A DNA stretch of 64,000 bases from a virus (IMGVR_UViG_3300013382_000008:1-64000); one strand, 5' to 3'. Shown: positions 4,898 to 37,867, counted from the stretch's first letter. Translations and numbers: made by a program. Notes: generated by a model not told the origin, from the sequence alone.

Positions 4898-4907
4898 ACA
4901 AATTTAT

Positions 4908-4939: not shown

Positions 4940-4950
4940 TACACCTGACT

Positions 4951-5914: not shown

Positions 5915-6021
5915 TAAAAAGTTTGTATTATTGAAATTCCTATAGAAATTGGGGAATATAATGAAGGGTTCTGCCAATAAAATAAATTTTATAATATAAC
6001 CCTAACAAAATCAGTAAAACT

Positions 6022-6055
6022 CTTGTGTAAATGATATTGTTTATTTATCTTTGCA
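6022..6055 (+). promoter_or_regulatory. Bacteroidota sigma-A type promoter (-33 TTG / -7 TAnnTTTG)
   Basis: CTTGTGTA-N16-TATCTTTGCA. Same spacing as three other copies. Confidence 0.8.
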
Positions 6056-6071
6056 CAAGAGTTTTATTATT

Positions 6072-16881: not shown

Positions 16882-16882
16882 T

Positions 16883-18658: not shown

Positions 18659-18660
18659 TT

Positions 18661-21600
18661 ATGGCTAAGAAAAGTAATACACAGAAAGATATAGATATTA
18701 CAAAGATGGGGCCTATGAGATACAATCAATTACAACAGGCTAACAATGCACAATTTAGTGCAGATGTTAGTCCTGATGTAAAGGATTTTATTACAAGAGG
18801 TAGAGCACATCTGGCTGCACAAACACTTTATAATCCTTATGAACAAGCAGAGCAGAATGTTCAAAGCTCTTTAGCTAATACAACTACTCCATGGGGGCAA
18901 AGCATGTGGGATAATCCTACTGCAACTGAGGCACAGTTTCAAGAGTTAGGGGATATAAGAGCTGAGAATCAACCTTGGTATGCTAAGATAGGGGCAGGTT
19001 TAGCCAAGGGGGCTATACTTGCAGGAACTACTTTCCTTGATGGTACTTTAGGTTTGTTGTTTGGTGCAGGAACTGCAATGAAGGAAGATAGATGGTCAGG
19101 TCTTTGGGATAATGATTTCTCCAAGGCTATGCAATCTGTCAATGATTGGTCAGAACAAGCATTGCCTAATTACTATACAAGAGCAGAACAAGAACAACCT
19201 TGGTATGAGAACATATTTACTGCTAACTTCTTAGGAGATAAGTTTATCAAGAACTTAGGTTTTACAGTAGGTGCTTTCTACAGTGGTGGTGTTACTGCCG
19301 CTGGATTGAAAGCAACTAAATTACCTCAGCTTATTGGGGCAATTGCTAAGTCTTCAAAAGCCCCAGCAATTGTTAATACTGCTGTAGGAGCACTTACTTC
19401 AGCAGTAAATGAAGGTAGAATAGAAGCTCTTAACAATAGTAATGATTGGTTTAATTTACATAAGGCACAATTTGATGATAAATATACTCAGAGAGTACAA
19501 GAAATAAGAAACTTGTATGGGGATTCTCCTGTGGCAGACAGTCTTATTAATCAAGAGACAGAATCTTATAATTCAGCTATAGGAAAACTTAATGAGGATA
19601 GACTCAAGATGGGTAATGCAGACTTACTTATGAATATTCCTATCCTTACTGCATCCAATATAATTCAATTTGGTAAATTATATGCCAATGGTTTTAAGAC
19701 AGCAAGAAGGGCTACCAATATAGTAGGCAGGGCTGGTGAATATACTGCTGGTACTACAAAATTAGGCACTGCTGCTGCTATAACTAGAGGTGCATTATCT
19801 GAGGGTAATGAAGAAATATCACAAAAGGCAGCATCTCTTATAGCAGGTAAATATTATGAGACTGATGTAAATAACTTCTACAAGGCAAAAACTGACCCTA
19901 CAGCATCACAGGAAACCTTGGATTGGACTAAATCATTTGCAGAGGGAATTAATGAGACAGTAAATGACGCAAATAGTTGGGAAGAGTTCTTCATAGGTTC
20001 TTTGACAGGTGCACTGGGTATGCCAAGATTTAGAGGGATTAGAAGTGAGTCAGGCTCTCTGCAATCTCCTATTACTATTGAAGGTGGTGCTATAAATGAG
20101 TGGAGAGATTATAGAAATAAGATGGCAAGAGAAAGTGAGATTGCCAACTATATGAATGAGAGAATCAATTCTCCTGAATTTAAGAATTACTATCAAGGAC
20201 TTATTAGACATAATAAGTATCAAAATGATATGAATGTTGCTGCTGAGGAAGGTAATGAATTTGATTTTAAGAATGCAGAACATGCTCAATTAATATCTGA
20301 TATTTCCATGTTTGACAATGCTGGCAAAATGGAAGACCTTAATACATTGATTAATTCTGCATTTGACACTTCTGATGAAAACCTTGCCTCTATAGTAGAA
20401 AATACTACAACTACTCTTGAAGATGGTTCTAAGGTAGGCCCCTTTGTTGATAAAAACGGTAATCCAATGTATGCTACTCCTGAAGGCAAACAAGAGATGA
20501 TTACTAAGTTACAACAGAATCATGATGAGATAACCAATGCCATCAACAACTATTTAAAGATAAAAGATGAGATTGACACTAAGACAGGTCAGCAATTATC
20601 AGATGACCAGCTTGAGGAATTAACTTGGATGAAATCCCAGATAGGTAACTGGTCTGAGAGGGCTACAGCTATGTCTGGAGAGATAAAGTCAACTATAGGA
20701 AGTGTTATAGGTAATTTAAGCTCTCTTCTTAATTTCAATCAACAGATAAGAGATTATGAAGGTCAAGCACATGCTGATTTGACTGACAGATATAATCAAG
20801 CAGATAAAAATGTAAGAACTATCCAAGGTGCTATAAATACCCTTGACTTAGTAAGAAATCAGAATGATGAAACATTAGCTCATACATTAGCAACTAATCC
20901 TAAGTTTGTAGATGGTCTTATAAAGGAAATCAATGAGGTGGATGATACTGTACTTAATGCAGATGAAAAGGAAGATATTACAACCAAACTAAATGATATT
21001 GTCAAGTTAGGTAATGCCTCAAAGACATATAATGCAAAGCTAAAAGAGTATCTTGAAAATCCTCAAAAGCAAGCAGAAGACCATGCAAAAGCTGATGAAC
21101 AGGCTGTTCAGCAAGAGTCTAAAAGAAAGTCAGATGATTTAAAGACATCTTTAAGCAATGCCCAAAACTTACAAGAGTTTAGAGACATCATAGATACCCA
21201 AGAGGACACAGAAAATAGGGATAAAGTATTAAGTGAACTTGAGGATGATGATAATGAGATGGCTAAGAATTATAGGGAAACTTCACAATATAATAATGAA
21301 GTAAGAAGAGTTCTTAATAACTCAGATGCAGACACCCAAACTAAACAAGATGCTCTTAAGCTCCTTCAAGACCAATTTGATAATTCTGAGAATATAAAAC
21401 AATTGGCTAATCCTAACTCTATATATATTAATAATGAAAATGCCTTTGATGAAGATTCAGAGGAGGATGTAGAATTGTCTGCAACAAGATTCCAAGAAGC
21501 CCAATATGAGCTTCAGAAGGCAATGTCCCAAGTAAACAATGACAATAAATTTAAGGATAGATTTTCTCCTGAATATAAAAAACCTGTAAATAAAAGAGAG

Positions 21601-24600
21601 GGAAAAGTTAGAGGAGATGACAGAACTACTACAGGAGATAGTGGTACATCTACTACACCTCCTGTGACAGATAATGAGAATTTACCTGGAACAGGAGTAA
21701 TTGAAACTTCTGAAACTCCTGTAGGTAATATAACTGCTGAAATGGTCAATGAGGAGAATAAAAAAGCTAATGAAAAGGTAGAAACTCCACAGAGACCAAG
21801 TAAAGGTGCTGTTAGTCAATATTATAGACCTGCTATACCTGAATTACATATAGAGGCAAGTAAAGAAGGAGACTTCAGACCATTTGATGTTGTAGTTAGT
21901 GAGAGGGAAAAGAATGTAGATTTCTCTGGTATTTATGGTTATTTAAGAGACAGTGGTGCCTTTAAATATTTGAATGAGGGTAACTTAAAAGCAGGTGATG
22001 AACTTGGATTTATGATAGACCCTTCATTTAATGACCATACTATTTTCATTATAGATAAGAAGAATAATCAGATAGTAGGCAGTTTGGATGAATCTGATTA
22101 TAGTACATCAAGATATGAAGGTCTGAAGAATCTTGAAGAGAGAATAAGAAAAGAATTTGCTAATAGGACAACTAATAATGTTGAGGAGAAAAAAGATAAA
22201 AATGTAGTAACAACTGAATATATTAGTGCAAGTGGTACTCATAAAGTACAAGCAACACCTGTTCATTTTAGAGATTTAAAGCCCGGAGATAAATTTATTA
22301 ATGAGTCAAAATCATTAGATACATTTATTAAAAGAATTGATGATAAAAATGCTGTCATACAGAATAGTGAAAGTAGTTCAAAGGCTTTAGTCAGTGCTAA
22401 TAAATCAGGAATGAACTATTACAATTGGCTTAAGCAAGACCCTGTAATTTATAAAATTACAGAAGAAAGTAATAGCACTAAAGAAACTACAGATAATAGT
22501 AAAACTAAAAGTAAATTCATAGCATCTCCTACTACTAGAGTATCTAAGTTAATGATAGGTAGGGTTCCTTATGGTAGTACTGAAAGAAGTTTGGCTAATA
22601 TTCCTAATGTATCAAGTGATAATAAGAAGCCTATTTTTGGTATTATAAAGAATGGTGTTCTTACTACTAATGGTAAGATTGATGATAGTCTTATCATCAA
22701 GCCAATGGATATGAGCCAAAAGGAAGGTAGGTTATATTTGCTTATACCTAATGGGGCTGGTAAATATTCTCCTGCTGCTGTAAGAGTTAAGCATTTCAAT
22801 AATGAGGAGTTTAACTTAAAAGATGCTACTGTAAGTTCAACTCCTATTGGAGAAGACATAAAGAATGCCATTACTAAGTTATCAACTGCTATATCACAGG
22901 ATGATGTGTCTGCTGCTATGCAGGACTTGGCACAAGACTTATATATGCAGGATATTATGATTACTTGGTTCAGTGGTAAGGCAGGTGATGGTATTGTTAT
23001 AAGTAAGAAAGTAAGAAAACCAGATGGTACTTATGAAAAAGTAATCATTGAAGGTAAGGAACAAATCAAGGAGGATAAGTATGATGTATATTTCTCTACA
23101 AGTAGCAAGAGTACAAAGATTGGAGGTATAAACTTTGATGCAACTGCTCTTGAAGACTTGGGAGATACAAGTGCATTAGGGGTTCCAAAGAGCCCTGATG
23201 ATATATATAATGAAATACTTGGACACCTTATTAAGTTCAATCTTCCTCTACAAGTTAGTGCAAGGAGAATAAATGAAGGTGTATATAACAATAGATTGAT
23301 AAACTCCAATATTCTTACTTCAAATATTGTAGATGCTTCAGTAAGAGGTACTTGGTTTACAACTGATTATTTTGACAATGATGGTAATCTTCATCAAGCT
23401 ATAAGCCCAGCTTCTGTAGCACCTCAACCTAAGAGGAAAATTGAAACTCCTGTAGGTGGTACTGAGGGTGCTATTGCAGGTACAAGAATAGTATCTATAT
23501 TCTCAAACAAGCCATACTATGTGGACTTAAAGACAAATACTATTAAGGATGACCAAGGTAAATCTGTGACTATTACCAATACTAATAAGATTTTATTAGA
23601 TTTAGCTTGGGCACAAGATAACTTTGGTGATGCTACAACATCCTCAATGATGGTAGATAACAAAGTCCTTACTCCTGATGGTAAGGTACTTGACAGAAGT
23701 AAACAAAAGTATCTTAGTGGTCAAGAGGCTCAAGATATAAAGGATACTATTGCAGGTAGGAAGGAAGAAAGAGAAGATAGAGTTGCCGAGTCTAAGGAGG
23801 TTATCAATGAAATATATGAGAACCAAAAGAGAGTAGATAAGACAAGAACTGATGGGGAGTTTTACTATATACTTGAAGATGATGGGGAGTATCACCAATA
23901 TAGCAGAGTACATAGTAGGTTAGGTTCTAATTGGATAGAATCTAAGAAAGAAACAAAGGCTCTTGAATTAGCAAGACTTAATCTTAGTAAGTTTGTAGAT
24001 AATCCTACTCAATATGAGAACTATCTGAAATACTTGGAAAGAAAATTCAAGGTAGACTTGACTGCCTACAGGGGGAAAACTGATGTCAAGAGTAGAGATA
24101 CTATTGTGAATATAGTAAGAGACAAGATGTCTGGTACTAACTCACAAAGGGCACTTGATGCTGGCTCTGCTGTAGATAGTATTATTAGACAATATTTTAC
24201 TATAAGAGATGTCTCTAAGATAACAAAACCTTCAAATATGTCAGAAAATGCTTTTATAGATTTGATTACAACTCTTAATAAAATTAAGTCAAATATAGAG
24301 CAAATGGGAGAAAGATTCCTTGCTGACAATATAGTATTGTTCCAGAAGTATCCTGATGGCACAAGGGTTGCAGGCGAGGTTGACATTCTCTCTGTTGACA
24401 AGGAGGGTAACTTTAGAATCTATGATGTAAAGACAAGTAGATACAGCTTCTATGACTTTACAGATAGATATGGTCATAAGGTTAATTACTTTAATAGTGC
24501 TTCTCCTACTCAAAGAATGAGTGCTAAAAGTTATTATACTTTACAACTTTCTGCTTATAAGAATCTATTTGAGTCTCAATATGGTGTGCCAGTTACTAAG

Positions 24601-26403
24601 TTAGCTGTAATGCCATTTGTATTGAGTTATGATAAGGAGAATGTATCATCAGTACAAAGTGAAAAGGGTATTCCTATTGTGTATAATCCTGCTGTCAATG
24701 TACCTTTGGTAAGTAATGTCAAAGTAGATAAATCTACAGAAACTCCTGCTACTCCAGCACAAGCTCAAACAGTGCTACCTATTTTTGAAACTTCATTGGA
24801 GACACAGAATCCTATTGAAGATTTAACCCCTGAGCACAGTATGAATAATGTTGATGAAGAAGTAGGATACTTTGAACTGGATGGTAAGTTACATAAAGGA
24901 TATTTAACACCCATTGCAGGTATTACAGAAGTAGATGTCTATATGACTAAGGTTCCTAATATTACAAAGGGATTTGGTAGACAGGGAGAAGAAGCTCATG
25001 TAGCTTCAAATAGTTACTATGTAGTATTTCCTAATGGTAAAACATTCTTACTTGTAAAGAACAATCCTGTGCAAAGAGGTATGAATGAAACTCAAGTGGA
25101 GAATACCATTAGAAAGGCTTTATTAGGTAATCCTCAAAGAATGAGAGATTTTGCATCAGAAAAAACTATATTGTTTGACCCTGATGCAGTACCTACTGTA
25201 AGTGCTACTCCTATCACTACTGTAGAAACTCCTGCAACTATTAATCAAGGTAATACCCAAACAGGTGCTGCCTATACTACTCAAAAAGAACAGGCAATTA
25301 ATGACCATGATGAAGAGTTTGAAAATGAGTTAATTCTAAGAAGAGTTGATACCTCCAATACTACAGTATGGAACCAAGAGAAAGAACTTAAATGGTTAAA
25401 TAAAGTATTGCCTCAATTAAGTGAGAATGATAGAGTACAAGTAGTAAAAGGCCTTATTAAAGTAGGCAGACAAGGTGCTTTAGCTTGGGGCAAGTTTGAT
25501 AAAGGTATAATTACATTATCTAACATAGCTGCTGAAGGTACTGCATATCATGAAGCTTTCCATGCTGTATTTAATCTTCTTCTTGACAATAATGAGAGAC
25601 AAGCATTATATGATGAGGCAAGGAAGTTATATGGTGAAAAAGACAATCTTTCTCTTGAGGAAGATATGGCAGAAGGATTCAGAGAGTATGTAATGACAAG
25701 ACAGAATAGAGGCTTAGGTAAGAGAATACTTGATTTCTTCAAGGAACTCTTTACCAAGGTTACTAACTGGTCTAACTTTAGACCCTCTCTTATAAGTTAT
25801 TATCAGAGAATTAATGCTGGTAATTATGCTAAAACTCCTGTATATTTGAGCACTGAAGGTCAATTAAAAGGAAAAAGGTTATGGCACACTTCTAATGAGA
25901 TAATATACAGATTTAATAAGGAAATGCCAGAAGGGTATTTTGCTCAACATGGGGGTTCATCAAAGGCTATATTCTTTGCAGATAGAGCACCTGAGTCTCA
26001 ATCTTTCTTATCTCAAAGGAAGTACAAGAATCAATATGACGTGATAATTAATAACCCTTATGTAGTAGAGAATTTGACTGCTGGTAAATATAATCAAGAT
26101 AGTAAGCATAATTCTATGCAAGAAGCTATCCAATATGCTATAGATAATGGATATGACTCAGTTATATTCAAGGACCTTTATGACAATATGATGTATGGAG
26201 ATATATATGTTATATTTGACCCAAATCAAGTAAACTATATAGTTGGTCAAGATAATATTGGGGTAGACTATGGTCCTAATAAATTCAAAGATTTGCCAAA
26301 GGAGCAATGGAAAGTCCTTGTAAAAAAAGGTTGGACTGAAGAACAATGGAACAGAATCTCTCAAGAAGAGAGAAACCAAGCTGTTAAGTGTATAGCCTTT
26401 TAA
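18661..26403 (+). CDS. Giant virion-ejected polyvalent protein (membrane segment, PD-(D/E)xK nuclease, zincin metallopeptidase, ART-like domain)
   Basis: 2580 aa. AGEVDIL...IYDVKTS...YTLQLSAY; HEAFH...EEDMAEGF; WHTS...IFFA...NNPY...GYDSVI...YVIFDPNQV. Confidence 0.8.
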   Translation: MAKKSNTQKDIDITKMGPMRYNQLQQANNAQFSADVSPDVKDFITRGRAHLAAQTLYNPYEQAEQNVQSSLANTTTPWGQSMWDNPTATEAQFQELGDIRAENQPWYAKIGAGLAKGAILAGTTFLDGTLGLLFGAGTAMKEDRWSGLWDNDFSKAMQSVNDWSEQALPNYYTRAEQEQPWYENIFTANFLGDKFIKNLGFTVGAFYSGGVTAAGLKATKLPQLIGAIAKSSKAPAIVNTAVGALTSAVNEGRIEALNNSNDWFNLHKAQFDDKYTQRVQEIRNLYGDSPVADSLINQETESYNSAIGKLNEDRLKMGNADLLMNIPILTASNIIQFGKLYANGFKTARRATNIVGRAGEYTAGTTKLGTAAAITRGALSEGNEEISQKAASLIAGKYYETDVNNFYKAKTDPTASQETLDWTKSFAEGINETVNDANSWEEFFIGSLTGALGMPRFRGIRSESGSLQSPITIEGGAINEWRDYRNKMARESEIANYMNERINSPEFKNYYQGLIRHNKYQNDMNVAAEEGNEFDFKNAEHAQLISDISMFDNAGKMEDLNTLINSAFDTSDENLASIVENTTTTLEDGSKVGPFVDKNGNPMYATPEGKQEMITKLQQNHDEITNAINNYLKIKDEIDTKTGQQLSDDQLEELTWMKSQIGNWSERATAMSGEIKSTIGSVIGNLSSLLNFNQQIRDYEGQAHADLTDRYNQADKNVRTIQGAINTLDLVRNQNDETLAHTLATNPKFVDGLIKEINEVDDTVLNADEKEDITTKLNDIVKLGNASKTYNAKLKEYLENPQKQAEDHAKADEQAVQQESKRKSDDLKTSLSNAQNLQEFRDIIDTQEDTENRDKVLSELEDDDNEMAKNYRETSQYNNEVRRVLNNSDADTQTKQDALKLLQDQFDNSENIKQLANPNSIYINNENAFDEDSEEDVELSATRFQEAQYELQKAMSQVNNDNKFKDRFSPEYKKPVNKREGKVRGDDRTTTGDSGTSTTPPVTDNENLPGTGVIETSETPVGNITAEMVNEENKKANEKVETPQRPSKGAVSQYYRPAIPELHIEASKEGDFRPFDVVVSEREKNVDFSGIYGYLRDSGAFKYLNEGNLKAGDELGFMIDPSFNDHTIFIIDKKNNQIVGSLDESDYSTSRYEGLKNLEERIRKEFANRTTNNVEEKKDKNVVTTEYISASGTHKVQATPVHFRDLKPGDKFINESKSLDTFIKRIDDKNAVIQNSESSSKALVSANKSGMNYYNWLKQDPVIYKITEESNSTKETTDNSKTKSKFIASPTTRVSKLMIGRVPYGSTERSLANIPNVSSDNKKPIFGIIKNGVLTTNGKIDDSLIIKPMDMSQKEGRLYLLIPNGAGKYSPAAVRVKHFNNEEFNLKDATVSSTPIGEDIKNAITKLSTAISQDDVSAAMQDLAQDLYMQDIMITWFSGKAGDGIVISKKVRKPDGTYEKVIIEGKEQIKEDKYDVYFSTSSKSTKIGGINFDATALEDLGDTSALGVPKSPDDIYNEILGHLIKFNLPLQVSARRINEGVYNNRLINSNILTSNIVDASVRGTWFTTDYFDNDGNLHQAISPASVAPQPKRKIETPVGGTEGAIAGTRIVSIFSNKPYYVDLKTNTIKDDQGKSVTITNTNKILLDLAWAQDNFGDATTSSMMVDNKVLTPDGKVLDRSKQKYLSGQEAQDIKDTIAGRKEEREDRVAESKEVINEIYENQKRVDKTRTDGEFYYILEDDGEYHQYSRVHSRLGSNWIESKKETKALELARLNLSKFVDNPTQYENYLKYLERKFKVDLTAYRGKTDVKSRDTIVNIVRDKMSGTNSQRALDAGSAVDSIIRQYFTIRDVSKITKPSNMSENAFIDLITTLNKIKSNIEQMGERFLADNIVLFQKYPDGTRVAGEVDILSVDKEGNFRIYDVKTSRYSFYDFTDRYGHKVNYFNSASPTQRMSAKSYYTLQLSAYKNLFESQYGVPVTKLAVMPFVLSYDKENVSSVQSEKGIPIVYNPAVNVPLVSNVKVDKSTETPATPAQAQTVLPIFETSLETQNPIEDLTPEHSMNNVDEEVGYFELDGKLHKGYLTPIAGITEVDVYMTKVPNITKGFGRQGEEAHVASNSYYVVFPNGKTFLLVKNNPVQRGMNETQVENTIRKALLGNPQRMRDFASEKTILFDPDAVPTVSATPITTVETPATINQGNTQTGAAYTTQKEQAINDHDEEFENELILRRVDTSNTTVWNQEKELKWLNKVLPQLSENDRVQVVKGLIKVGRQGALAWGKFDKGIITLSNIAAEGTAYHEAFHAVFNLLLDNNERQALYDEARKLYGEKDNLSLEEDMAEGFREYVMTRQNRGLGKRILDFFKELFTKVTNWSNFRPSLISYYQRINAGNYAKTPVYLSTEGQLKGKRLWHTSNEIIYRFNKEMPEGYFAQHGGSSKAIFFADRAPESQSFLSQRKYKNQYDVIINNPYVVENLTAGKYNQDSKHNSMQEAIQYAIDNGYDSVIFKDLYDNMMYGDIYVIFDPNQVNYIVGQDNIGVDYGPNKFKDLPKEQWKVLVKKGWTEEQWNRISQEERNQAVKCIAF

Positions 26404-26427
26404 TTAGTAGGATGAAATTTTTTATTG

Positions 26428-26462
26428 AGGGGAGTAACAGAATGTTACTTCCCTTTTATTTT
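26428..26462 (+). terminator. Intrinsic terminator ending the + arm
   Basis: GGGGAGTAACA-gaa-TGTTACTTCCC then TTTTATTTT. Confidence 0.8.
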
Positions 26463-26495
26463 ATACTAACAATAGTATAAAGCAAATTAAAAATT

Positions 26496-26541
26496 AAAAA
26501 AAATAAGGGGAGGAGTAGAACTTAATCTACTCACTCCCCTT
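26496..26541 (-). terminator. Intrinsic terminator ending the - arm
   Basis: AAGGGGAGGAGTAGA ... TCTACTCACTCCCCTT stem with an A-run on its left (U-run on the - strand). Confidence 0.75.
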
Positions 26542-26579
26542 TTACATTATTAACATTAACATTATTGTCTTTATTATCT

Positions 26580-29500
26580 TTACTGCTTAAAGAATGGTAT
26601 ACTTTCTTCTGGATGTAAACTTCTATATATAGTCTTATTCATAGGAATTAATGGAGACTCAAACCATAACTTAGTAGCTTTTGAATCCCCTTTGAATCTA
26701 CCTGATTGTATAATAGCATCCTCACCTGCAAATGTCTCATAATTCATAGGATTCATCACTCCTACCATATCCAATACACTCTCTAAAGTATTGATACCAG
26801 CAGCAGGAGATTTCAATATTTTAAGAGCTTCTCCTACCATTTGAGGGCCAGGGACTTGAGTACCTATTTCAGTATAAAGTCTTCTTGCTTGATACTCAAC
26901 CATCTTTTGTAACCAAGGTCTATTCTTATTATCATCCCAATCCATAAGGCCAAGGAATGCTGCTACAATTAGAAAATGTCCTACCTCAGTGGCAGCTCTC
27001 TTAATATTTGCTTTTTCAGTCTTAGTAAGATTATTCCAATTGGCAGCTATTGCAAATTGTCCTTCCTTTAACTCTTTTGCTAACTGCATCATGAATCTTC
27101 CTGTAGTAAGATAATATCCTTCAGTCCAAGCTTGTAAATCCATATTATAGGAAGCTGATTTAAATCTTCTATTTATAGAAGGTTTAATCCACTTTCTAAA
27201 CATAATGCCCATTCTGCCTATAGCTAATCTTTGTATTGCACTTCTATCAATCTTATTATAAATACCATGCATTCTCTGATTTATAGCAGCAGATTTTCTA
27301 CTAAATGCTATAATATCATCTCTTGTAAAAGCTGAGTCATCTTCCTTGGTATAACCCTTTTTTAATTGTAACTTAGCTCCCAGTTTCTTATTATTTTTGT
27401 CAATGGGAACTACTTCCATGGCATCCCATAAAGATACTATCTTTCCATCAGGAGCTTTCATCTTATAAGCATCTGCAAGGGCTAATGAGGTTCTATTCTG
27501 CATCCAGTGCTCACCAGCATTGTTCATAAGGAATAATGCAGAAGTACCAAACATTCTACTAAACCAAGTCTTTCTATCAAAATTTACTTCTCTTACATCA
27601 GTCTCATACTCTTGCAATACATTGAATAATTCATCCCATAAAGCAAGTTTGTTTGTTTTTACCCTATTACCTATCTCAGCTAAATAAGCAGGTAAAGCTT
27701 TTCCATAATTTCTATCAGCATGCAATGTGTTGGATTCATTATAAAATTCCCCTGCAAAGGATTCAATTCTCATCATTACCTTACCTGTGGCTACATTGGA
27801 TATACCACTTAATAAATTAAGTCCTAACATATTAAGTGATGTTATTCTATTGACAAAATTAGCTGCTTTACCTCTATCAATCTTAGTATTGCCAAAAGTA
27901 CCTTCATCTGCCATATATTTACCATATACTTGCATTTCAAAGAAAGTATTTAGTCTCTGCATAAATCTTGTAGCATCTCCAGATTTAGTAAGAGTAGATT
28001 CAACTTTTCTACCCACAGACTTAAACTTCTCAACCAATGGCTTACCACCTCTTGTCTGTATAATCTCCCTCTCCCTTAGCATATCCCTACCAAGCTCAAG
28101 GACATCAATTACTTTATTCATTTCATTGAAGTCATTAGCCATAGCTGCATAAGCTGTAAGAGTAGATACTATATCAGTAGATAAGTCATTAGGATTTTCA
28201 CCTTTCTTCATTTTAGTATAATAAATAGGTAATACTTGAACTTCATTACCCTCAAAGTCCTTCATAGTAGCCCTATCACCAAAGTCAGTATCATCTGTCC
28301 TTCTAATAAATTGGTCTTTAACAGCTTCCCATAATTGCATAGTACCTGACTTTACACTATCAGAAGATTTAACTCTTTCAAGTAAGTCTTTTCTAATCTT
28401 AACTGCATTGGTTAAGGTAGTATATTTGTCAGGAAGGTAGGAATCAAGTCTGCTCTTTATATCCATAATCTTATTATAGTATTCTTTCTGAGCAGTATTT
28501 AAATTTTGGTAAGCTTTATTACCATAGATTGACATCTTAGGTTGCTTTTTACCATTGATTACCTCCATGTTATCATCAAACCATGCCTGCTTTTCCTTTC
28601 TATATTTATCAGCATTGTCTCCTACAGGATTTTTACCATATTTCTCATTAAGGGACTTAAACATTTCTCTAATTTTATCCTTGAATAAGCCTTGGTTAAT
28701 CTCAGATATATAGTTGCCTGTTAAATTACCTTTATTATCTTTTTCAAACATCCAATCAGTATTCTTTATACCAGCTTGCTCAAGTTTAATAGTAGCTGCT
28801 TGGAGTTCTTTCATAACATTGATAGTATCTAATCTTGCATTTTCCTTACTCTTCTTGACAGCTTGGTCCATAACTTTCAACATATAATCAGAAGAATCTG
28901 CCATAGAATCTAACCACATGTCAAAGAATGATATATCATTATCAGCTACCTTAACCAAGTTTTCAGCAGTCATAGTTTTACCTTTGAATTTACCAAAAGG
29001 GACAGTAATACTATTTCCTATAAAGGGTTTGATGAAGTCAACAAATAATGGCATAGATACTTTATTGTATTCTATAAATAAGTCTTTAAGTAATGTAGTA
29101 GTATTATCTAATACTACTCTTACTCTTTGTCCATATCTATTATCATCATATTTTTCTTCATCTACAAGAGCCTCTCTAATATCTTCAGTGATATGCTTAT
29201 AACTATATAAATAATTTCTCACATCTCTTAATACTCTAGCCCTTTCATTCATATCAGCAGCAGGGGTATTTTGTAAAGCGGTAAGTCTTTTATCTACTTT
29301 AGTTAACTCATTTAGAGCATTTTCTGTAAAGGCATATATACCTTCAATCTCATTATTATCAGCTAAATCAACATCTAATTTATCAAGAAATAACCTTTGA
29401 TTCATACTAAACTGTCCTTCAGGGTTTCTCTTTTCATAAATTTTCAATCTCTTTAACTCATTATCAATAATTTCTTGAAGTAACTTCTTATCTCTTGTTA

Positions 29501-30635
29501 TTCTCTCTGAGGTATTGTAGAATAATCCATTTGCACTTATATTATTAATATCAAGGGCATTATCCATACTACCATCAAGAATTTGTTGAGCTAAGGAACC
29601 AAAATTCTTATCAGCTTCCTTTATAGCTCTTTGGATAGGGCTTGCACTAATATTCTTAAAAAAATTCTTAATAGCCTGTATTACTCTTTGTAATAGATTC
29701 TTATAAGGAGCAGTTGGAACCCCCTCTCCTTGAAGAAGATGTTTTGCAAGTAGTTTACCAGCAGCCTCCTTTGCTAATTTAGCACTATCTCCATTATATA
29801 GAGTATCATAAGTACTATAATCATCTCCTAAGATATTCTCTGTTAGTCCTGTAGATGCTATATTATTAACTAGTCTTGTTATAAGAGGATTATCTCTCAT
29901 AGCTTCAATAGCAAAGTGAGCAAATTCCTCTGGAAGAGCTTTCTCGCCTTGTATACCATTAGCAAGCCTAATCATTTCAACAAGACCATTTGCTGCATTT
30001 CTTGCAACATCAAAATCAGTTACACCATGAATACCCATTCTTTTTTCAAGGTTAGTCAAAGCTCCTACACTTACTCCATGAGATTCAAGTATACTTCTTA
30101 ATCTATTATTAAGATTCTCATTGTATTCCATTTTATCTGCATTAATGGAGTTAAGCCTGTTTCTTCTCTCAACCTTTACACCAATGAATATTCTAGGAGA
30201 CTCACTATCCTGAATTTTAATTACACTAGCTACATAATCATCTCTAAAATCTGAGTTTTGATTAAAAGCTATTGCTTTTTGTTTTAACTTCTGATAATTC
30301 TCATCATTGTTCACCCATAAAGCAGGTCTATCAGAACCTCTCTTATAATATCCAATTTCCTTATTAAGTCTCTCAAGTACTTTAGTCTCTGGAATGACCT
30401 TACTAAAATTAGTTTGCTTTAATAAACTTCTAAGAGTAGGTTCATTATTTTCATCAAGTATTAATCTTGGTTGCCATTCTCTTATAAATTGATTACTTTT
30501 TGTAATTAGATAAAGTTTTACAGCTTCACTTCTATTATTTGAAGTGAAGGACAGCAAGTCCTTGAATAACTTGCTGTCCACTTTTTCACCTTTTTTATTC
30601 TTTACTTTTGGAATAATTGCACAACTTCTTGCCAT
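26580..30635 (-). CDS. Large virion/ejection protein associated with the virion RNAP (degenerate zincin motif)
   Basis: Likely start MARSC at 30635 (1351 aa), 2 nt after the RNAP stop. EEFAH...KEAAG zincin-like segment; helical C-terminal region. Confidence 0.7.
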   Translation of the reverse strand: MARSCAIIPKVKNKKGEKVDSKLFKDLLSFTSNNRSEAVKLYLITKSNQFIREWQPRLILDENNEPTLRSLLKQTNFSKVIPETKVLERLNKEIGYYKRGSDRPALWVNNDENYQKLKQKAIAFNQNSDFRDDYVASVIKIQDSESPRIFIGVKVERRNRLNSINADKMEYNENLNNRLRSILESHGVSVGALTNLEKRMGIHGVTDFDVARNAANGLVEMIRLANGIQGEKALPEEFAHFAIEAMRDNPLITRLVNNIASTGLTENILGDDYSTYDTLYNGDSAKLAKEAAGKLLAKHLLQGEGVPTAPYKNLLQRVIQAIKNFFKNISASPIQRAIKEADKNFGSLAQQILDGSMDNALDINNISANGLFYNTSERITRDKKLLQEIIDNELKRLKIYEKRNPEGQFSMNQRLFLDKLDVDLADNNEIEGIYAFTENALNELTKVDKRLTALQNTPAADMNERARVLRDVRNYLYSYKHITEDIREALVDEEKYDDNRYGQRVRVVLDNTTTLLKDLFIEYNKVSMPLFVDFIKPFIGNSITVPFGKFKGKTMTAENLVKVADNDISFFDMWLDSMADSSDYMLKVMDQAVKKSKENARLDTINVMKELQAATIKLEQAGIKNTDWMFEKDNKGNLTGNYISEINQGLFKDKIREMFKSLNEKYGKNPVGDNADKYRKEKQAWFDDNMEVINGKKQPKMSIYGNKAYQNLNTAQKEYYNKIMDIKSRLDSYLPDKYTTLTNAVKIRKDLLERVKSSDSVKSGTMQLWEAVKDQFIRRTDDTDFGDRATMKDFEGNEVQVLPIYYTKMKKGENPNDLSTDIVSTLTAYAAMANDFNEMNKVIDVLELGRDMLREREIIQTRGGKPLVEKFKSVGRKVESTLTKSGDATRFMQRLNTFFEMQVYGKYMADEGTFGNTKIDRGKAANFVNRITSLNMLGLNLLSGISNVATGKVMMRIESFAGEFYNESNTLHADRNYGKALPAYLAEIGNRVKTNKLALWDELFNVLQEYETDVREVNFDRKTWFSRMFGTSALFLMNNAGEHWMQNRTSLALADAYKMKAPDGKIVSLWDAMEVVPIDKNNKKLGAKLQLKKGYTKEDDSAFTRDDIIAFSRKSAAINQRMHGIYNKIDRSAIQRLAIGRMGIMFRKWIKPSINRRFKSASYNMDLQAWTEGYYLTTGRFMMQLAKELKEGQFAIAANWNNLTKTEKANIKRAATEVGHFLIVAAFLGLMDWDDNKNRPWLQKMVEYQARRLYTEIGTQVPGPQMVGEALKILKSPAAGINTLESVLDMVGVMNPMNYETFAGEDAIIQSGRFKGDSKATKLWFESPLIPMNKTIYRSLHPEESIPFFKQ

Positions 30636-30637
30636 AT

Positions 30638-33600
30638 TTATAAAGTATATATTGTTGGAGCACCACAAATTTCTTCCCCATTTTCATCCTTATATTCTGT
30701 ATTAGGCTGAATAGAGGTTACATCATCAGATTTTGGAATTGAAGTATCCAAAGGAGTATTATAAGTCTTTTGAAAAGCCTCAGAATCTGCTTGGAGAATA
30801 GAATTCCAAAATTCTTCAGGCATATCATCAGGCATAGAACTCTCATCTACTTCAACATTTCCATTATCAAAGTTTGCCAATGTTTCTGCATAAGGGTCAT
30901 AGTCTTTCTTATTCTTGTCAATTACAGTTTCCATTTCTTCCACATCCCTGCCATACTCATATTCAATGAAGCTATTTCTGAAACCTAATGGTTCAATTCT
31001 TTCATAAATTGCAACATTGGGATTTTCAGTATTTAAAGTTGATAATTTGTAATAAGCATACTTTCCTTTGATTCTTTTACCTATATACTTAAAAAAGTCA
31101 TAAACAGGACCATCAGGAGTATCTATTCTCTTTTTGATAACTTTCTTATCTCCAAGAGTAGCATTATCATCAATCAAAAATGTAACTTCATCCTTAATAT
31201 CACCTTTATCATTTGTAAACTTGACAGATGAAGTATCAGGTATTTCAGGAACCAGCCTTCTATTATCCAAGTGATTATATACATATTGGTCTACAAATTG
31301 ACTATAGTCATCATTTGTTTTTAGTATAGACCTCAATGTACTTATATACTCTGGTACAGCCCTTCTTATTGCTGTAGGAGCCAAATGAATAAAAGTATTA
31401 GGACCAAAAGCAAATCCATTTCTATAGAAACTATATCTAAATAAGTTAAGAGCAAGTTTCTGGGCTTCTGGGTTACTCATGTACAATAGAGATGCCCAAT
31501 CTCTCATATATCTTTCTCTTAAAGTAGAACTCAATCTGCCTACATTCTTGAAGACTATAGTATCTACAGGGTTAGTGTTATTTGCCCTAATCACCTTTAG
31601 TCTCTTGATATACTCAATACTTGCAATATCCTCAATGTCTGTAACTACCTTCTTGAAATACTTAGGAAAATTATTGATAAATTCTTTCCTTCTATTATAT
31701 GAAGATATAGTAGTATTATCTACTTTAGAATCAGGATTGATAAGCAACTCAGACCCAAAGAAACCAGTCTTGGACATAATATATGCAAGTAAGTCATTGT
31801 AAATATTATTCATAGTTTTTGCATCCAACTTACCTGTTTTTGTCATGCCTCTGAGGGTATCAATTACTTCTCTAAATGATTCAGTATATTGAGGAAAATA
31901 AGACTTTAGCATTTCTTCTGTTTTCTGTAATCCAAGAGTATAGAAAGCCTGTAAGAAAGGAAGAGGAGCTGACAATAATCTTTCTCTTAAAGTGTCAATG
32001 CTAGGATTGTCGGATAACAAATCATCAAGTATTACATTGGCATTCTTCAAGGGAAACTTGGCATTATTCTCTATCTGGTCTAACAGGTCTTTTACTTTCT
32101 GTATCTTCAACTCTGTATCTGCAATAGTAGGGCCAGCCCCCCCACCTTGAGTATCAGCTCTTGTAGCTTGAACTAACTGACCTAAAGCATCAGCAGAGTT
32201 CATTATTCTCTTGAATAAATATCCTACTGCCACTTGTTTCTGATAAAATTCAATCTTTCTGAAATCAGAAGTCTGTGAAATATCAGTAACAGCTTCTTTA
32301 GCAAGTATTATATTATCCGCAAGGTCATCAGCAAGAAAACTATTGCTCTTATAATTATCATAAGTAACCATATTGGTAAGAGCGGCTTTCTCCTTATACT
32401 TATCTAGTACTTCATCAATAATACTATCCTTACTTTTACCTTCTCTACTCTCTCTAAAATAGGTCTGAGTAATCTCTTGAACTATAGGTTGCATCATTAA
32501 CAGACCTATCTCAATAGGATTATAACCTAATCTTGAAAGAAGCATGGAAGCATCAGCAGTTAAAGTATTTTGATTAAGTGCTGCAAGTACATGGTCTTTG
32601 GCATTATCCACAGAAGCAGCCAAGAATCCAGCATTATTCTTTGAGATAAATTCCTTAGCACCATTCATAATATCATGTAGAGATGTAAGTCTCTTCCCAT
32701 TCAATACAAATGAGCCATTTTCTTCATCCAAAGCTAACTGAGTATGTTGCATCAAGGCATGGTTTGCATTATGGTTAGCATAAATACCAGTCAACTTAGT
32801 ACCAGTCATGTTCTGTTGATGCAGCATTACCTGAGTTCTTGGTGATAATGGGTCCATCTTGACCTTTGTCTTTTCTGCTATTTTATCCAAAGTATCAAGA
32901 CTTAAATCAAATAGATAAGATGCTATGGACTTAGGATAAACCCTATTATTCTTCTGTACAGTCTTATTGAGTTCTACCCCTTCCTTCTTTAAAGCTTCAG
33001 CTAATTCACTCTCAGTAGAGTCATTAAGAATTGTCATTATTCTTGCTGCTCTTTTCTGATAATCAAAACCACCTGGGTTAAGAATCTTTGAAGCTGTATC
33101 TGCATTAGTCAGGACTCCATACATCATATCTATCAGCAAGTTATTTCTTGCCTCAAGACTGTTCTCCTGTGGAGACTTATTGAAGTCATACTTTACCTTA
33201 CTTATAATAGGCTTGGCAAGTCTATACTTCTCCTTATTCTCCTTGAACCATTCCTTAAAGTCATCAGTATCTGCATTGAGAATATCTTCTGCCAACTGGC
33301 TATGAGTGAACTGTGACAATACTTGATTGAATAGGCTATTCATTCTTGCATAGTCTTCTCTTGCCTGTCTCATATCATACTTTTTAACTCTGAACTCAGG
33401 TAACATGATATACAGCTTATCCACATCAAAGTCAGAACCTGACAGAGTAGTAATCTCAGCAGGAAGCATGATTGCAGAACCATTCTGTTGAGGAAGGAAT
33501 CCCTTAATATACAAAGGAGCCATTGAGTACTTATCCTCTGTTGGAACTCTATATCCAATCAACTTTCTCAAATCATCAGGAAGTTTAGTTACATCAAGCT

Positions 33601-36600
33601 GGTGAGTATTTGGGTCCATTAGAGGCTCATAGAACTCTCTACTATATGCAGGCATATAACATTCAAGATACTTAATCCTCTTGTTAGCACCTTCACCTTC
33701 AAACACTACATGAAGTTCATCAGTCAAGCCATAGTCAGATACCTGAATTAAAGCACCACCTCTAATCTTCTGTTTAGTAATTCTACTCTTGATTACACTA
33801 TTAAGGAGTGTCTGTACTCTTTGAGATTGCACAGGGTCAAAGAGAGGGATATTGAAGTTGTTGTTCTCATCAAGAGTACAAGCCCTCATCATATCCATAC
33901 CATATCTTTGATTGCCTCTTATTTCTTCAAGTAAGATTTCCTCTACTTTCTTTGGGTCTTTGAATATCTCATTTACATCAGCAAATGCTTGAAGAATGTT
34001 CTCAGTATTGATGGCATTATACAGGTCAAGCCACTCTTTCTTAGTCATCTTCTTACCATTAACCTCAATGATTGTGTCATCAGAGATGTCAGCAGTAATT
34101 AGTTTTCTAATCTGAGTACCTACCAACTGAACTGCATCAATAGCATGTTCAGGAGTTGCAGTCTGAATACCATAATCTTCATAAGATACCTTATGTACTA
34201 CATTAGGATTCTCATTACCAAATCCAATACCTGTAGTATCTTTAAGCCTTTGGATTACATCAGCCTCTGTATTTACATCATTCAAATCTATTACACCTTG
34301 TTTTCCAACCTTAGTGGTAGATTCAAACTGAACTACATCAATCTGATTATCCTCCATAAACTTATTTATGGCTTTCAGCTTGCCTGACCTTCCTAAAGGG
34401 CCAGCAATTAGTTCGTGCATAGCAAGCAATAGGAACTCTGAGTTCTTATGTTGTACAGGAGTCTTAATTCCAGTATGACCTTCAATGCCACTGTTATTAT
34501 TGACTTGTGTATAGACATAAGGCTTCTTAGTCTGCCAAATGATATTGAAGTCTTTGATATTCCAATCTCCATTCTTGAAGTTGTTATATGCTTGCTCCAT
34601 ATCATCTGTCCACTGACCTGACATACCAAGTATTGCCCTATAGGAACTCAAACTTCTATATGCCTGAGCATCTGCTACATTCACATTTCTAAACTTGTTG
34701 ATGATATAATCTCTGTCTATCTTGGACATTTCATTTCTTCTAACCCTTTCATCAAGTACAGTCTTGATGTCTTCAAGTATAGAAGATACTATTTCATCAT
34801 CCTTCAAGTAGAGGGTTCTTTCCCAATCTCTACCAATTCTCTCACCTTTATAAGTAGCCTTAGTATTCAGTCTAAGGGCAGGAGCATGAACCTCCTTATA
34901 TCTCTTCTGAAAGTCCTCAAGGTTCTTATAGAAGGCAAGGTCGGTAGTAGTAAGCTGGATAATTTGTGAAGTAGCCAGTTTACTATTCCAATAGTATTCC
35001 CTTAGAGCATCCTTAGCATTATTCTTAACAAACAGACTTCTTGAGATTGATTGAGCATCTTTCAACTTTATTTCACCTCTAGCAGCCTTATCTGTAAGTA
35101 ATGCCTTAATTTGCTCCATCAAATTGTTAGCTTCTCTATTATCAAAAATACTATTGTTATTATAAGACCTAAGTAGCAACTCCATATTGGTATTCCATAG
35201 TGGGCCTAATGCTTCCTTAGCCTTTATAAGAGCTTTTGCAGTTATTGCATTTTGCTTGGATTGTCCAGTAAAAGGAAGATATTTATACTTCCCATTAACC
35301 TCATCAAAGAGTCCTACTCTTTCCCAATCTTTACAATCTTGCTCAAACCCATCCTCCATAATATCATAGAGTGTAGTTCTAAGAAATTCTCTAAGCTCGG
35401 CACCAGTACCCTTGGATTTAAGCCTACTTAATCTATCAAGGAAAGTTTCTCCATTATCATACTTAATGTCATTAAGGGCAGGAAGGAATTTAAATTCTGC
35501 TCCTCCAATATTCTTTATATTACCTTCCTTATCTCTGATAATATCATAATTGGCAATAGGTTCCATAGTAGTAATACCATTCTGATAAGCATCATCCCTT
35601 TCCCTAACTAACATGATTCTATCATATTCTTGGTTAACCAAATCTACTAGCTTGTCAAGAATAACATCATCATAAGTTCTTTTCTTACCATTTTCATCAA
35701 GTATATCACCTGTAGTGTATTTTCTGAATCTGATAAACTCAGCAGAAGGAGCATCTGATAGAATAGGAACATGATACCAAGCATACTTTATACTTGACTT
35801 TGCAGAATTAGGGTCTCCCCAATACTCTGTAAGAAGAGCCAAAGTATAATCCAAGTCATCCCAATCCTTATATTCTACCTTATCAGAGTTTAGTACTACC
35901 TTATGATTAAGACCTTTTCTCAATTCATCAGATTCTGCAAGTTGTCTTAACCAATCATTTCTCCAATGACCATCCTTAAAGAACCACTCATAATCCTTAA
36001 ATTCAGTCTGCATAAACTTCTCAAATCTCTCCTTATCATTCATGACATTCTTGAGATTTTTGATAAGCTTACCCAAATAGTTAGGAGTAACATGGGAATA
36101 ATAAGTTTTATCATTCTCTCTAGTACTACTTTCAATAGCATCTTCAGTAACTTCTGCAAGCATTGAAGCTATTGAGTTATAAGCAGAACCAAAAGTATTA
36201 ATAAGGTCCCCCTTTCTCTCAGTACCATCTTCTAGTTTCTCATTCTTTATTTTACCTTTCTTGATGCCATTAAATATGACATTCAATTGAGGTAATAATA
36301 ACATGATGGGGTCAGTAAATGTAATACCTGGGGCTTTTTGTATGTTAGTTAATGATGTTCTTAAAACAGAAGGATTGGCATCAATACCTATCATATGAAG
36401 TAACTTCATTAAAGTCTTCCATACATTTTCTTTCTCCAAGAGTTTGAGTCTAGCATCTGTATCAAGATTTTGGAACATATTATTCAAGGTCTCAGTCCAT
36501 TCTAAACCTTTGGATGCATTACCCTCATTTATATCCCCATTCTTATCATATACACTATCTTCATCAAGTAGATTACCACTTTCATAATTATCTCTCCAAG

Positions 36601-37867
36601 CATCAAGAAGATAATATATACCTTCAGGTTTATTGATAGCCACAGTTTCCATCTTAAAAGTACCATCAGGCATCAACTTCTTCTTTTGAATCCAGTAAGG
36701 TATAAAGTCTTTTCTGAAATCTTGATAGAACTGAGAATACAAAGTTTCATCATTTTGAAGTAACTTGATTATTTGCTTAACCCAAGGTTTTGTTTTTTGT
36801 AAATCTTGAAGCAGAGGAATCATGTCATCTGAGTTAATCATGTTCCTTAGCTTGTCTATAAGAGTAGCATGAACATAATCAGCATCAAGGTATCTAGTAA
36901 ATCCCAAGTCATCCTTGTCATATGTACCTCTATAATCAAGCATAGGTACTTGTCTTATTACCTTTCTTACTGCTTGAGACAAAGACTCATGGGAACTTAC
37001 TTGTCTAAAATTAGTCATCCAACCATCCTTATAAGACTCTTCTTGCTTCCACTCATCTGAATCATTGTCTATCTCACTGTTACCTTCAGGGTCATCATCA
37101 TTAAGATTAGCATCAGCAGGGGCAGTATAATTAGGGTCTATTCTAATACCCTCAGTCATTACAAGTATAGTACTTGCTTCCTCTGCAAGAGCTTTAAATA
37201 CCTCAGGGTCATCAATTATCTTCATATACTCCTGATACTTATAAGCAGCTTTCTTCTTGGCAGCTTCAAGTTTCTTTTCGTCAGAATACTTATCAGCCCC
37301 TTTCATGGAATTGATAATATTAAGTTCTTGTTGTACTCTGTTTTCCTCTGTGTCCTGTACATAAGATTTAAATATGTTAGCTACTCTATTAAATAGGCCA
37401 GCAGGAGTATATTTACTTATGACAGATAATCTACCCAAGTTATTAAGTTCTGCTTGCAAAGCTTCTTTATCTATACCTTGACTATCCTTAATTTTTCTAT
37501 TTAAGGAATCTGTCATTTCCTGTAAAGCATCATCTACCTCATTACTAAAGAATCTTGCAATAAGAGCAACTCTATCCCTTCTTGTCTTAGGGTCAAAAAT
37601 TAAATCTACTTTTTGCTGAGTTTCAAGAGAAGTAACTTTAAGAGTATCAAAAGATTTACTAATTTCCTCATTAGAATTTTCAGTATTCTTAGTACCTCTT
37701 ATTTCTTTAATAAAATCATTGAGTTCTCCACCTAATGGAATATCCTCAATGGACTTATTATTCTTTTCTTGCCACAGTCCAACCAAATTAAGTATTGATT
37801 GCTCTGTCTCATTTGGAAACTTCTCAGCTAGTTTCTTTATTTCTGGTGTTAATATTAAACAACTCAT
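30638..37867 (-). CDS. Virion-packaged DNA-dependent RNA polymerase (crAss-type, double-psi barrel)
   Basis: Catalytic GSDFDVDKL (DxDxD), IGYRVPTEDKYS and VADAQAY motifs. Likely ATG at 37867 (MSCLIL, 2409 aa), downstream of a promoter. Confidence 0.9.
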   Translation of the reverse strand: MSCLILTPEIKKLAEKFPNETEQSILNLVGLWQEKNNKSIEDIPLGGELNDFIKEIRGTKNTENSNEEISKSFDTLKVTSLETQQKVDLIFDPKTRRDRVALIARFFSNEVDDALQEMTDSLNRKIKDSQGIDKEALQAELNNLGRLSVISKYTPAGLFNRVANIFKSYVQDTEENRVQQELNIINSMKGADKYSDEKKLEAAKKKAAYKYQEYMKIIDDPEVFKALAEEASTILVMTEGIRIDPNYTAPADANLNDDDPEGNSEIDNDSDEWKQEESYKDGWMTNFRQVSSHESLSQAVRKVIRQVPMLDYRGTYDKDDLGFTRYLDADYVHATLIDKLRNMINSDDMIPLLQDLQKTKPWVKQIIKLLQNDETLYSQFYQDFRKDFIPYWIQKKKLMPDGTFKMETVAINKPEGIYYLLDAWRDNYESGNLLDEDSVYDKNGDINEGNASKGLEWTETLNNMFQNLDTDARLKLLEKENVWKTLMKLLHMIGIDANPSVLRTSLTNIQKAPGITFTDPIMLLLPQLNVIFNGIKKGKIKNEKLEDGTERKGDLINTFGSAYNSIASMLAEVTEDAIESSTRENDKTYYSHVTPNYLGKLIKNLKNVMNDKERFEKFMQTEFKDYEWFFKDGHWRNDWLRQLAESDELRKGLNHKVVLNSDKVEYKDWDDLDYTLALLTEYWGDPNSAKSSIKYAWYHVPILSDAPSAEFIRFRKYTTGDILDENGKKRTYDDVILDKLVDLVNQEYDRIMLVRERDDAYQNGITTMEPIANYDIIRDKEGNIKNIGGAEFKFLPALNDIKYDNGETFLDRLSRLKSKGTGAELREFLRTTLYDIMEDGFEQDCKDWERVGLFDEVNGKYKYLPFTGQSKQNAITAKALIKAKEALGPLWNTNMELLLRSYNNNSIFDNREANNLMEQIKALLTDKAARGEIKLKDAQSISRSLFVKNNAKDALREYYWNSKLATSQIIQLTTTDLAFYKNLEDFQKRYKEVHAPALRLNTKATYKGERIGRDWERTLYLKDDEIVSSILEDIKTVLDERVRRNEMSKIDRDYIINKFRNVNVADAQAYRSLSSYRAILGMSGQWTDDMEQAYNNFKNGDWNIKDFNIIWQTKKPYVYTQVNNNSGIEGHTGIKTPVQHKNSEFLLLAMHELIAGPLGRSGKLKAINKFMEDNQIDVVQFESTTKVGKQGVIDLNDVNTEADVIQRLKDTTGIGFGNENPNVVHKVSYEDYGIQTATPEHAIDAVQLVGTQIRKLITADISDDTIIEVNGKKMTKKEWLDLYNAINTENILQAFADVNEIFKDPKKVEEILLEEIRGNQRYGMDMMRACTLDENNNFNIPLFDPVQSQRVQTLLNSVIKSRITKQKIRGGALIQVSDYGLTDELHVVFEGEGANKRIKYLECYMPAYSREFYEPLMDPNTHQLDVTKLPDDLRKLIGYRVPTEDKYSMAPLYIKGFLPQQNGSAIMLPAEITTLSGSDFDVDKLYIMLPEFRVKKYDMRQAREDYARMNSLFNQVLSQFTHSQLAEDILNADTDDFKEWFKENKEKYRLAKPIISKVKYDFNKSPQENSLEARNNLLIDMMYGVLTNADTASKILNPGGFDYQKRAARIMTILNDSTESELAEALKKEGVELNKTVQKNNRVYPKSIASYLFDLSLDTLDKIAEKTKVKMDPLSPRTQVMLHQQNMTGTKLTGIYANHNANHALMQHTQLALDEENGSFVLNGKRLTSLHDIMNGAKEFISKNNAGFLAASVDNAKDHVLAALNQNTLTADASMLLSRLGYNPIEIGLLMMQPIVQEITQTYFRESREGKSKDSIIDEVLDKYKEKAALTNMVTYDNYKSNSFLADDLADNIILAKEAVTDISQTSDFRKIEFYQKQVAVGYLFKRIMNSADALGQLVQATRADTQGGGAGPTIADTELKIQKVKDLLDQIENNAKFPLKNANVILDDLLSDNPSIDTLRERLLSAPLPFLQAFYTLGLQKTEEMLKSYFPQYTESFREVIDTLRGMTKTGKLDAKTMNNIYNDLLAYIMSKTGFFGSELLINPDSKVDNTTISSYNRRKEFINNFPKYFKKVVTDIEDIASIEYIKRLKVIRANNTNPVDTIVFKNVGRLSSTLRERYMRDWASLLYMSNPEAQKLALNLFRYSFYRNGFAFGPNTFIHLAPTAIRRAVPEYISTLRSILKTNDDYSQFVDQYVYNHLDNRRLVPEIPDTSSVKFTNDKGDIKDEVTFLIDDNATLGDKKVIKKRIDTPDGPVYDFFKYIGKRIKGKYAYYKLSTLNTENPNVAIYERIEPLGFRNSFIEYEYGRDVEEMETVIDKNKKDYDPYAETLANFDNGNVEVDESSMPDDMPEEFWNSILQADSEAFQKTYNTPLDTSIPKSDDVTSIQPNTEYKDENGEEICGAPTIYTL

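Follow-up and report, generated by a model that had tools for sequence, protein, structure and literature searches.

We propose that three giant cargo proteins of a crassvirus, namely a gp47-like protein, the virion RNA polymerase (RNAP) and a gp49-like protein, are probably tethered end to end via pairs of terminal cysteines (Cys), most likely as disulfides. The genes lie in IMGVR_UViG_3300013382_000008:1-64000, a stretch of 64,000 nucleotides (nt) that was analysed as a whole and is hereafter called the window. The window genome was placed in Steigviridae, Asinivirinae (Crassvirales). Genes were named using comparison with crAss001 and Pfam. The three proteins and the codons of their terminal Cys are given below, with positions counted from the first letter of the window and lengths in amino acids (aa).

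18661..26403, plus strand: gp47-like giant cargo protein, 2580 aa, named from its position and strand as in crAss001 gp47 and from phrog_298
26389..26391, plus strand: TGT codon of Cys2577, fourth from the C-end (KCIAF, then stop), the sole Cys of the gp47-like protein
30638..37867, minus strand: virion RNAP, 2409 aa, homologue of crAss001 gp50 and phi14:2 gp66, identified by its match to PDB 6VR4
37859..37861, minus strand: codon of RNAP Cys3 (MSC), counted from the ATG at 37867
30665..30667, minus strand: codon of RNAP Cys2401, ninth from the C-end (ICGAPTIYTL, then stop)
26580..30635, minus strand: gp49-like protein, 1351 aa, homologue of crAss001 gp49 and phi14:2 gp65, identified by tblastn
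30621..30623, minus strand: codon of Cys5 (MARSC), the sole Cys of the gp49-like protein, counted from the ATG at 30635

Apart from its two terminal Cys, the RNAP contains only Cys845, Cys1330 and Cys1403. The first-pass annotation of this sequence had reported the Cys positions of all three proteins and the lack of Cys in cargo proteins 1 and 2, and each position was correct on recount. The five proteins of the cargo block together contain 7 Cys in 7858 aa (0.09%, compared with ~1.6% in the other open reading frames (ORFs) of the window). Under random placement, the probability that at least 4 of the 7 Cys fall in 100 terminal positions was ~9e-7. An in-frame stop was located one codon ahead of the gp49-like ATG in most relatives and ahead of the RNAP ATG in several. 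Therefore, the starts of both genes are not in doubt, and the N-terminal Cys on which the earlier proposal depended belong to the true proteins. Both TGT and TGC were used at the terminal Cys sites across relatives.

Conservation was assessed in 62 IMG/VR loci (L001-L062; STEIGVIRIDAE) with 45-89% identity. Cys5 of gp49 was present in 61/61 IMG/VR relatives, almost always as the sole Cys, and in 120/120 database homologues, in 113 of which it was the only one; it forms an invariant column of alignment A4. In every relative with the N-end present, the RNAP contained a Cys at residue 3-7, preceded by a variable leader (MSC, MSTNPTC, MNNC, MSKRC or MSYC). The C-terminal Cys of the RNAP was found in all relatives of the set, with 0 to 9 variable residues behind it, and was the very last residue in some of them; Cys2401 is an invariant column of alignment A5. 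Similarly, every complete gp47-like orthologue of the set showed a Cys 3-4 residues from its end, which was nearly always the sole Cys of the protein.

The gp47-like Cys was the last, second-last or third-last residue in nine reference phages, and the same terminal pattern was observed in crAss001, cr111_1, DAC15 and IAS virus. In phi14:2, a marine Cellulophaga phage, the sole Cys of g067 (1797 aa) is the last residue, g066 (2180 aa; the RNAP of PDB 6VR4) contains Cys3 and Cys2179 only, and g065 (1421 aa) contains Cys3 only; that is, the trio contains 4 Cys in 5398 aa, all of which are terminal. Counting Cys in orthologues, which had been suggested as a check on the tether, showed that the terminal Cys are conserved in Steigviridae (including marine phi14:2), Intestiviridae and Suoliviridae. 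They were kept at 20-30% protein identity across three families and the marine phage, and were kept where the flanking residues and tail lengths differ freely.

The crAss001 gp47/gp50/gp49 and phi14:2 gp67/gp66/gp65 proteins are orthologous to the window trio, with the same neighbours and the same terminal Cys pattern. However, the window differs from the descriptions of these phages in that the gp47-like gene is on the opposite strand to the RNAP and gp49-like genes. The order gp47-like, RNAP, gp49-like is collinear in phi14:2, cr111_1 and loci L049-53, from which the opposite-strand layout of the window appears to be a local rearrangement. The statement in the first-pass annotation that the chain comes from genes on opposite strands thus describes the window correctly but is not general.

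We also examined relatives in which the genes are fused in the same order, which had been named as a possible source of support. Such relatives were found, with RNAP-gp49 fusions in Intestiviridae and gp47-RNAP fusions in Suoliviridae. In Intestiviridae (crAss002, Rudgehvirus, cr3_1 and cr8_1), RNAP and gp49 form one protein of 4100-4400 aa. The sample of this type comprised 81 IMG/VR loci, which were obtained with an alignment query; a single-protein query gave one locus. The gp47-like protein showed a C-terminal Cys in 81/82 ORFs, the exception being the front half of a broken gene, and an N-terminal Cys in 0/78. The fused RNAP-gp49 protein started with M-x(1-6)-C in 77/78 cases, the exception being a gene fragment, and a Cys was found among its last 10 residues in none of 76. 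In the neighbouring cargo proteins of these loci, terminal Cys were almost absent (2/72 and 0/50). In Suoliviridae (cr1_1, cr118_1 and 45 IMG/VR loci), gp47 and RNAP are fused into a protein of 4500-5300 aa, which contained no N-terminal Cys (0/35). Each of the 41 complete RNAP ends of this family carried a Cys 2-4 residues from the end, and the separate gp49-like protein started with MQC, MIC or MSIIC in 41/41 cases and had a C-terminal Cys in 0/39.

The order of the modules was constant (gp47, RNAP, gp49). Each break between two successive modules was flanked by a Cys pair, no other end had a terminal Cys, both Cys were absent at fused joints, and the outermost ends (the N-end of gp47 and the C-end of gp49) never carried a Cys. 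As judged from the gene sequences, the comparison showed the peptide bond of a gene fusion and a Cys pair to be interchangeable at each joint. Of the linear chain proposed in the first-pass annotation, the pairing and the order are strongly supported by conservation, by the fusions and by the Cys-free outer ends, whereas the link itself is predicted from sequence.

Two further observations concern fused genes. Locus L203 (L203:1640-20545) encodes a 6301-aa gp47-RNAP-gp49 triple fusion lacking both joint Cys; an in-frame deletion removed the RNAP tail and approximately the first 270 aa of gp49, by which both joint Cys were lost. As the contig is a 195-kb double-length assembly, the L203 fusion may be an assembly artefact and was not used as evidence. 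In crAss002, the annotated start of gp33 (L068:9237-9335) is probably 32 codons early, as a conserved MSC is found at codon 33, as in related loci.

A link of this kind is already known from one solved example. In the cryo-electron microscopy structure of cyanopodophage A4 (Anabaena phage A-4L), the C-terminal helix of gp27 sits in a cleft of gp26 within the capsid and is held by a disulfide between gp27 Cys1715 and gp26 Cys5 (PNAS 2025, PMC12002296). In the A-4L record, Cys1715 is the sole Cys of gp27 (1717 aa; third from the end), and Cys5 is the sole Cys of gp26 (1114 aa). As in the crassvirus trio, a Cys near the upstream C-end and a Cys near the downstream N-end belong to otherwise Cys-poor proteins, which in phage A4 are encoded by consecutive genes; the window trio shows this signature, i.e., a C-end Cys followed by a Cys within ~7 residues of the next N-end. 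Phage A4 differs in that it has one joint rather than two, that its chain contains no RNAP and that its architecture is a pentameric ring, and its disulfide was not put forward as a general rule (PMC12002296).

Related arrangements were observed in two other phages. Leptolyngbya phage Lbo-JY46 (L075, 2750-15656) is a 125-kb cyanophage that is not classified in Crassvirales. The sole Cys of its 1552-aa protein is the last residue, the sole Cys of the next protein (2748 aa) is residue 4, and the C-terminal part of the latter is homologous to gp49 (E 5e-29). With paired terminal Cys and a gp49-like domain, Lbo-JY46 would therefore have the same joint outside Crassvirales. In csAssE-Sib (L079, epsilon-group; 3970-6228, 14405-20807), a 752-aa protein with Cys5 and a Cys second from its end resembles a middle link. 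The gp49-like gene of this phage consists of two overlapping ORFs, the first of which starts with MTSTC; stop-codon recoding or a frameshift may account for this arrangement.

Giant virion RNAPs and ejection proteins almost without Cys are also known in N4-like phages (N4 gp50 virion RNAP; DEV gp71-gp73), and the low Cys content of the cargo block corresponds to that of the Cys-depleted ejection proteins of N4 and DEV. The depletion of the N4 type has been interpreted as a consequence of passage through the periplasm. However, the polymerase of N4-like phages is a single chain of ~3500 aa in which no terminal Cys is conserved, whereas the crassviruses reach a comparable length from separate proteins with conserved joint Cys. 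The crassvirus RNAP also differs in type, being a two-barrel enzyme with a DFDxD motif.

Next, the structure of the termini was considered. An AlphaFold2 (AF2) model of gp49 residues 1-450 had a mean predicted local distance difference test (pLDDT) score of 72. It showed a beta-hairpin after residue 5, followed by a confident helical domain to approximately residue 345. Because residues 1-5 are disordered in the model, Cys5 is predicted to be on an exposed tip before the folded domain, the first part of which is located as follows.

30402..30620, minus strand: gp49 N-terminal domain, residues 6-78, following Cys5 and homologous to the phi14:2 gp66 N-terminal domain after Cys3

In a VIA-align comparison with 48,161 chains, the top match of the gp49 model was residues 2-94 of 6vr4_B, with a modest Z of 6.5 (root-mean-square deviation 3.2 Å, 69 residues aligned, 26% identity). 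In addition, hhalign matched gp66 residues 1-69 to the gp49 N-terminal profile with a probability of 95.7% and E 1e-8, with Cys aligned with Cys. The two Cys-receiving proteins can therefore share one type of Cys-tipped N-terminal domain, as in gp49 and the phi14:2 RNAP. The AF2 model of the C-terminal 450 aa of the RNAP was poor (mean pLDDT 50), with the last ~115 aa at pLDDT 30-50. Cys2401 is at the end of this acidic tail, which is predicted to be disordered. The last 100 aa of the RNAP have a net charge of -19, and the first 40 residues of gp49 have a charge of +6. These charges are consistent with docking of a flexible acidic RNAP tail on a basic gp49 head, although this is only suggestive.

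Several points weigh against the tether. Direct evidence for covalent linkage exists in no crassvirus. As the hosts are anaerobic and conditions in the gut lumen are reducing, oxidation of the thiols is not guaranteed. The N-end of the window RNAP resembles the gp49 cassette over only ~10 residues, which is not significant. The crAss001 structure paper and its supplement are silent on the cysteines of gp47, gp49 and gp50 despite reduced and non-reduced mass spectrometry. When the gp49 family was compared with phage A4 gp26, hhalign gave a probability of 0.1%, and a PDB profile search gave no match. Phage A4 chains were likewise absent from the Foldseek and VIA-align results, for which the query was the first 450 aa of gp49 only. 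Since no homology was found between the gp49 family and gp26, phage A4 is an analogue and not a demonstrated relative of the crassvirus proteins. Mapping of the split termini onto the junction of the fused proteins using hidden Markov models gave no usable matches. Finally, because fusion deletes the termini themselves, loss of both Cys at a joint is also expected if each Cys serves a separate, terminus-dependent role. The fusion result alone therefore leaves room for independent roles and is no proof of pairing.

In that case, the terminal Cys would be unpaired, each acting at its own terminus in attachment to the portal, the capsid interior or cargo, in thiol modification, or as a packaging or ejection signal; the short motif that follows the N-terminal Cys, which is hydrophobic and conserved, might serve as a recognition peptide. 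However, the C- and N-terminal Cys are equal in number and lie on neighbouring modules, the outer ends and, almost always, other cargo lack terminal Cys, and cargo proteins 1 and 2, with 0 Cys in the window, offer no consistent partner. Moreover, the same pattern in phage A4 is a direct pair. We favour pairing because each C-terminal Cys is matched on the next module while the outer ends are Cys-free, and because of the phage A4 precedent; separate roles are unlikely. Facing Cys could also be joined by a metal ion or cluster, for example a Zn site with nearby acidic or His residues, giving the same chain topology through other chemistry. Such a bridge would need no oxidising environment, many lineages have acidic residues ahead of the C-terminal Cys, and exactly four terminal Cys in the split forms would suit a tetrahedral site. 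However, the fused lineages strictly keep only two Cys, implying pairwise joints rather than one four-Cys node. In addition, no conserved His or second Cys was found near the termini in the relatives and alignments A4 and A5, and the solved phage A4 joint is a disulfide. We consider a metal bridge quite unlikely. The pattern might also reflect chance, shared ancestry without selection, or miscalled starts or stops, as close relatives share sequence by descent and some database starts are too early (e.g., crAss002 gp33). However, the Cys persist amid variable flanks and tails and at the low identities noted above across three families, with both Cys codons in use; upstream in-frame stops fix the starts, and the probability under random placement is small in the window alone. 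This explanation is effectively refuted, and we find it scarcely credible.

Other functions of a terminal Cys were considered and rejected. The gp47-like end KCIAF fits the C-a-a-X prenylation box; this was ruled out as relatives end in C, CK, CS, CNS or CR. Split intein or Hint splicing and N-terminal nucleophile autoprocessing were ruled out because the Cys are on short variable stubs and not at intein block positions, and no fold of these types was seen in the model of the gp49 N-domain. A lipoprotein lipobox was ruled out as there is no signal peptide. A nucleotide signal at the gene junction was ruled out as the gp47-like and RNAP genes of the window are not adjacent and both Cys codons are used.

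The identity of the window genes was supported as follows. The RNAP matched PDB 6VR4 (6vr4_A) with E 3e-28. The nearest records of the window, compared over this gene, were uncultured phage cr85_1 and bajarodcaudo virus 1 (~82-83% nucleotide identity), and identity with the cr85_1 'putative RNA polymerase' was ~82%. The gp49-like protein showed 68.7% identity with crAss001 gp49 in tblastn and also matched phi14:2 g065; its gene is directly downstream of the RNAP gene, starting 2 nt past the RNAP stop. For the gp47-like protein, a weak PD-(D/E)XK/exonuclease signal was obtained, and neither this protein nor the gp49-like protein gave a match in PDB sequence searches. The window is syntenic with regard to the muzzle protein and cargo proteins 1 and 2 (Pfam crAss_MUZ, crAss_CARG1 and crAss_CARGO2), which are listed here together with the catalytic motif of the RNAP.

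9267-13991, plus strand: muzzle protein (Pfam crAss_MUZ, crAss001 comparison)
14098..16881, plus strand: cargo protein 1, crAss001 gp45 homologue, 927 aa, 0 Cys (Pfam crAss_CARG1, E 1e-52; Phage_lysozyme)
16883..18658, plus strand: cargo protein 2, gp46 homologue, 591 aa, 0 Cys (Pfam crAss_CARGO2, E 4e-115)
33419..33433, minus strand: catalytic DFDVD motif of the RNAP, residues 1479-1483, DFDxD type

Complete RNAPs of the Steigviridae set ranged from 2247 to 2790 aa. The RNAP gene was often interrupted or enlarged, in Steigviridae L004, L007, L017, L033, L039, L052 and L059, in cr116_1 (L070), and in Suoliviridae L163, L178, L180, L182, L184, L185, L188-L191, L195, L198 and L205. In many Suoliviridae, the first ORF stops within or just past the catalytic motif (...SDFD), and in cr116_1 a 215-aa ORF lies between the two RNAP halves. 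These interruptions resemble mobile introns or inteins whose homing endonucleases are aimed at the active site. An HNH/NUMOD homing endonuclease was also found near the ThyX gene of the window (40545-41510 and 37985-38848, both minus strand), and the ThyX gene of cr111_1 is split by an endonuclease gene. Elsewhere in the window, tail hub protein A (Pfam crAss_THA) ends in ...CNCHG and a 185-aa ORF starts with MESC (4951-5520 and 6762-7319, both plus strand). By analogy with crAss001, whose tail hub and ring proteins are disulfide-linked in the published structure, both may be additional sites of structural disulfides.

The presence of gp47-, gp50- and gp49-type proteins in the virion is known from published mass spectrometry of crAss001 and phi14:2 only. 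According to the crAss001 structure paper, gp47, gp49 and gp50 are in the cargo zone of the capsid and must partly unfold for tail passage, and the particle contains inter-subunit disulfides (gp57 dimer, tail hub and ring proteins). Cysteines are not mentioned in the phi14:2 RNAP preprint, which notes that some phages fuse all three proteins. A full-text literature search on cargo cysteines and disulfides found no description of the terminal Cys of crassvirus cargo; papers on crAss001 and phi14:2 cargo describe RNAP-associated cargo and do not mention terminal cysteines or a covalent link. Compared with the searchable literature, the new elements are the Crassvirales-wide rule, the two joints around the virion RNAP and the interchangeability with gene fusion.

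Based on these results, we suggest the following course for the tethered trio. The C-terminal tail of each upstream protein would dock on the Cys-tipped N-terminal domain of the downstream protein, as in phage A4 and as the acidic RNAP tail and basic gp49 N-end suggest. The two thiols would then oxidise in the particle, which in crAss001 holds other disulfides, and the trio would become one linear thread of ~6340 residues. Because the links are within 0-9 residues of the chain ends, this thread would be unbranched, like the giant polypeptides of the fused lineages. It would pass the narrow tail partly unfolded, in a fixed order and N-end first, and reduction in the cytoplasm would release the polymerase. 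In addition, a C-terminal Cys tail with a Cys-tipped N-terminal domain might be a general modular coupler by which podophages join ejection proteins from separate genes into a single linear thread. The coupler would be cleavable by reduction, would be swapped freely with fusion, would occur across Crassvirales and, outside the order, in phage A4 and Lbo-JY46, and would fix the stoichiometry and order of virion RNAP injection. We hold this broader proposal to be plausible, albeit at somewhat less than even chances.

Crassviruses are the human gut's most abundant viruses. The crAss001 structure paper left open how the RNA polymerase cargo of ~0.7 MDa is packed and counted and how it threads a tail at most 50 Å wide. 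If the tether exists, it would explain the 1:1:1 co-packaging of the three proteins and their fixed order of ejection, and it would also explain why these genes split and fuse freely between families.

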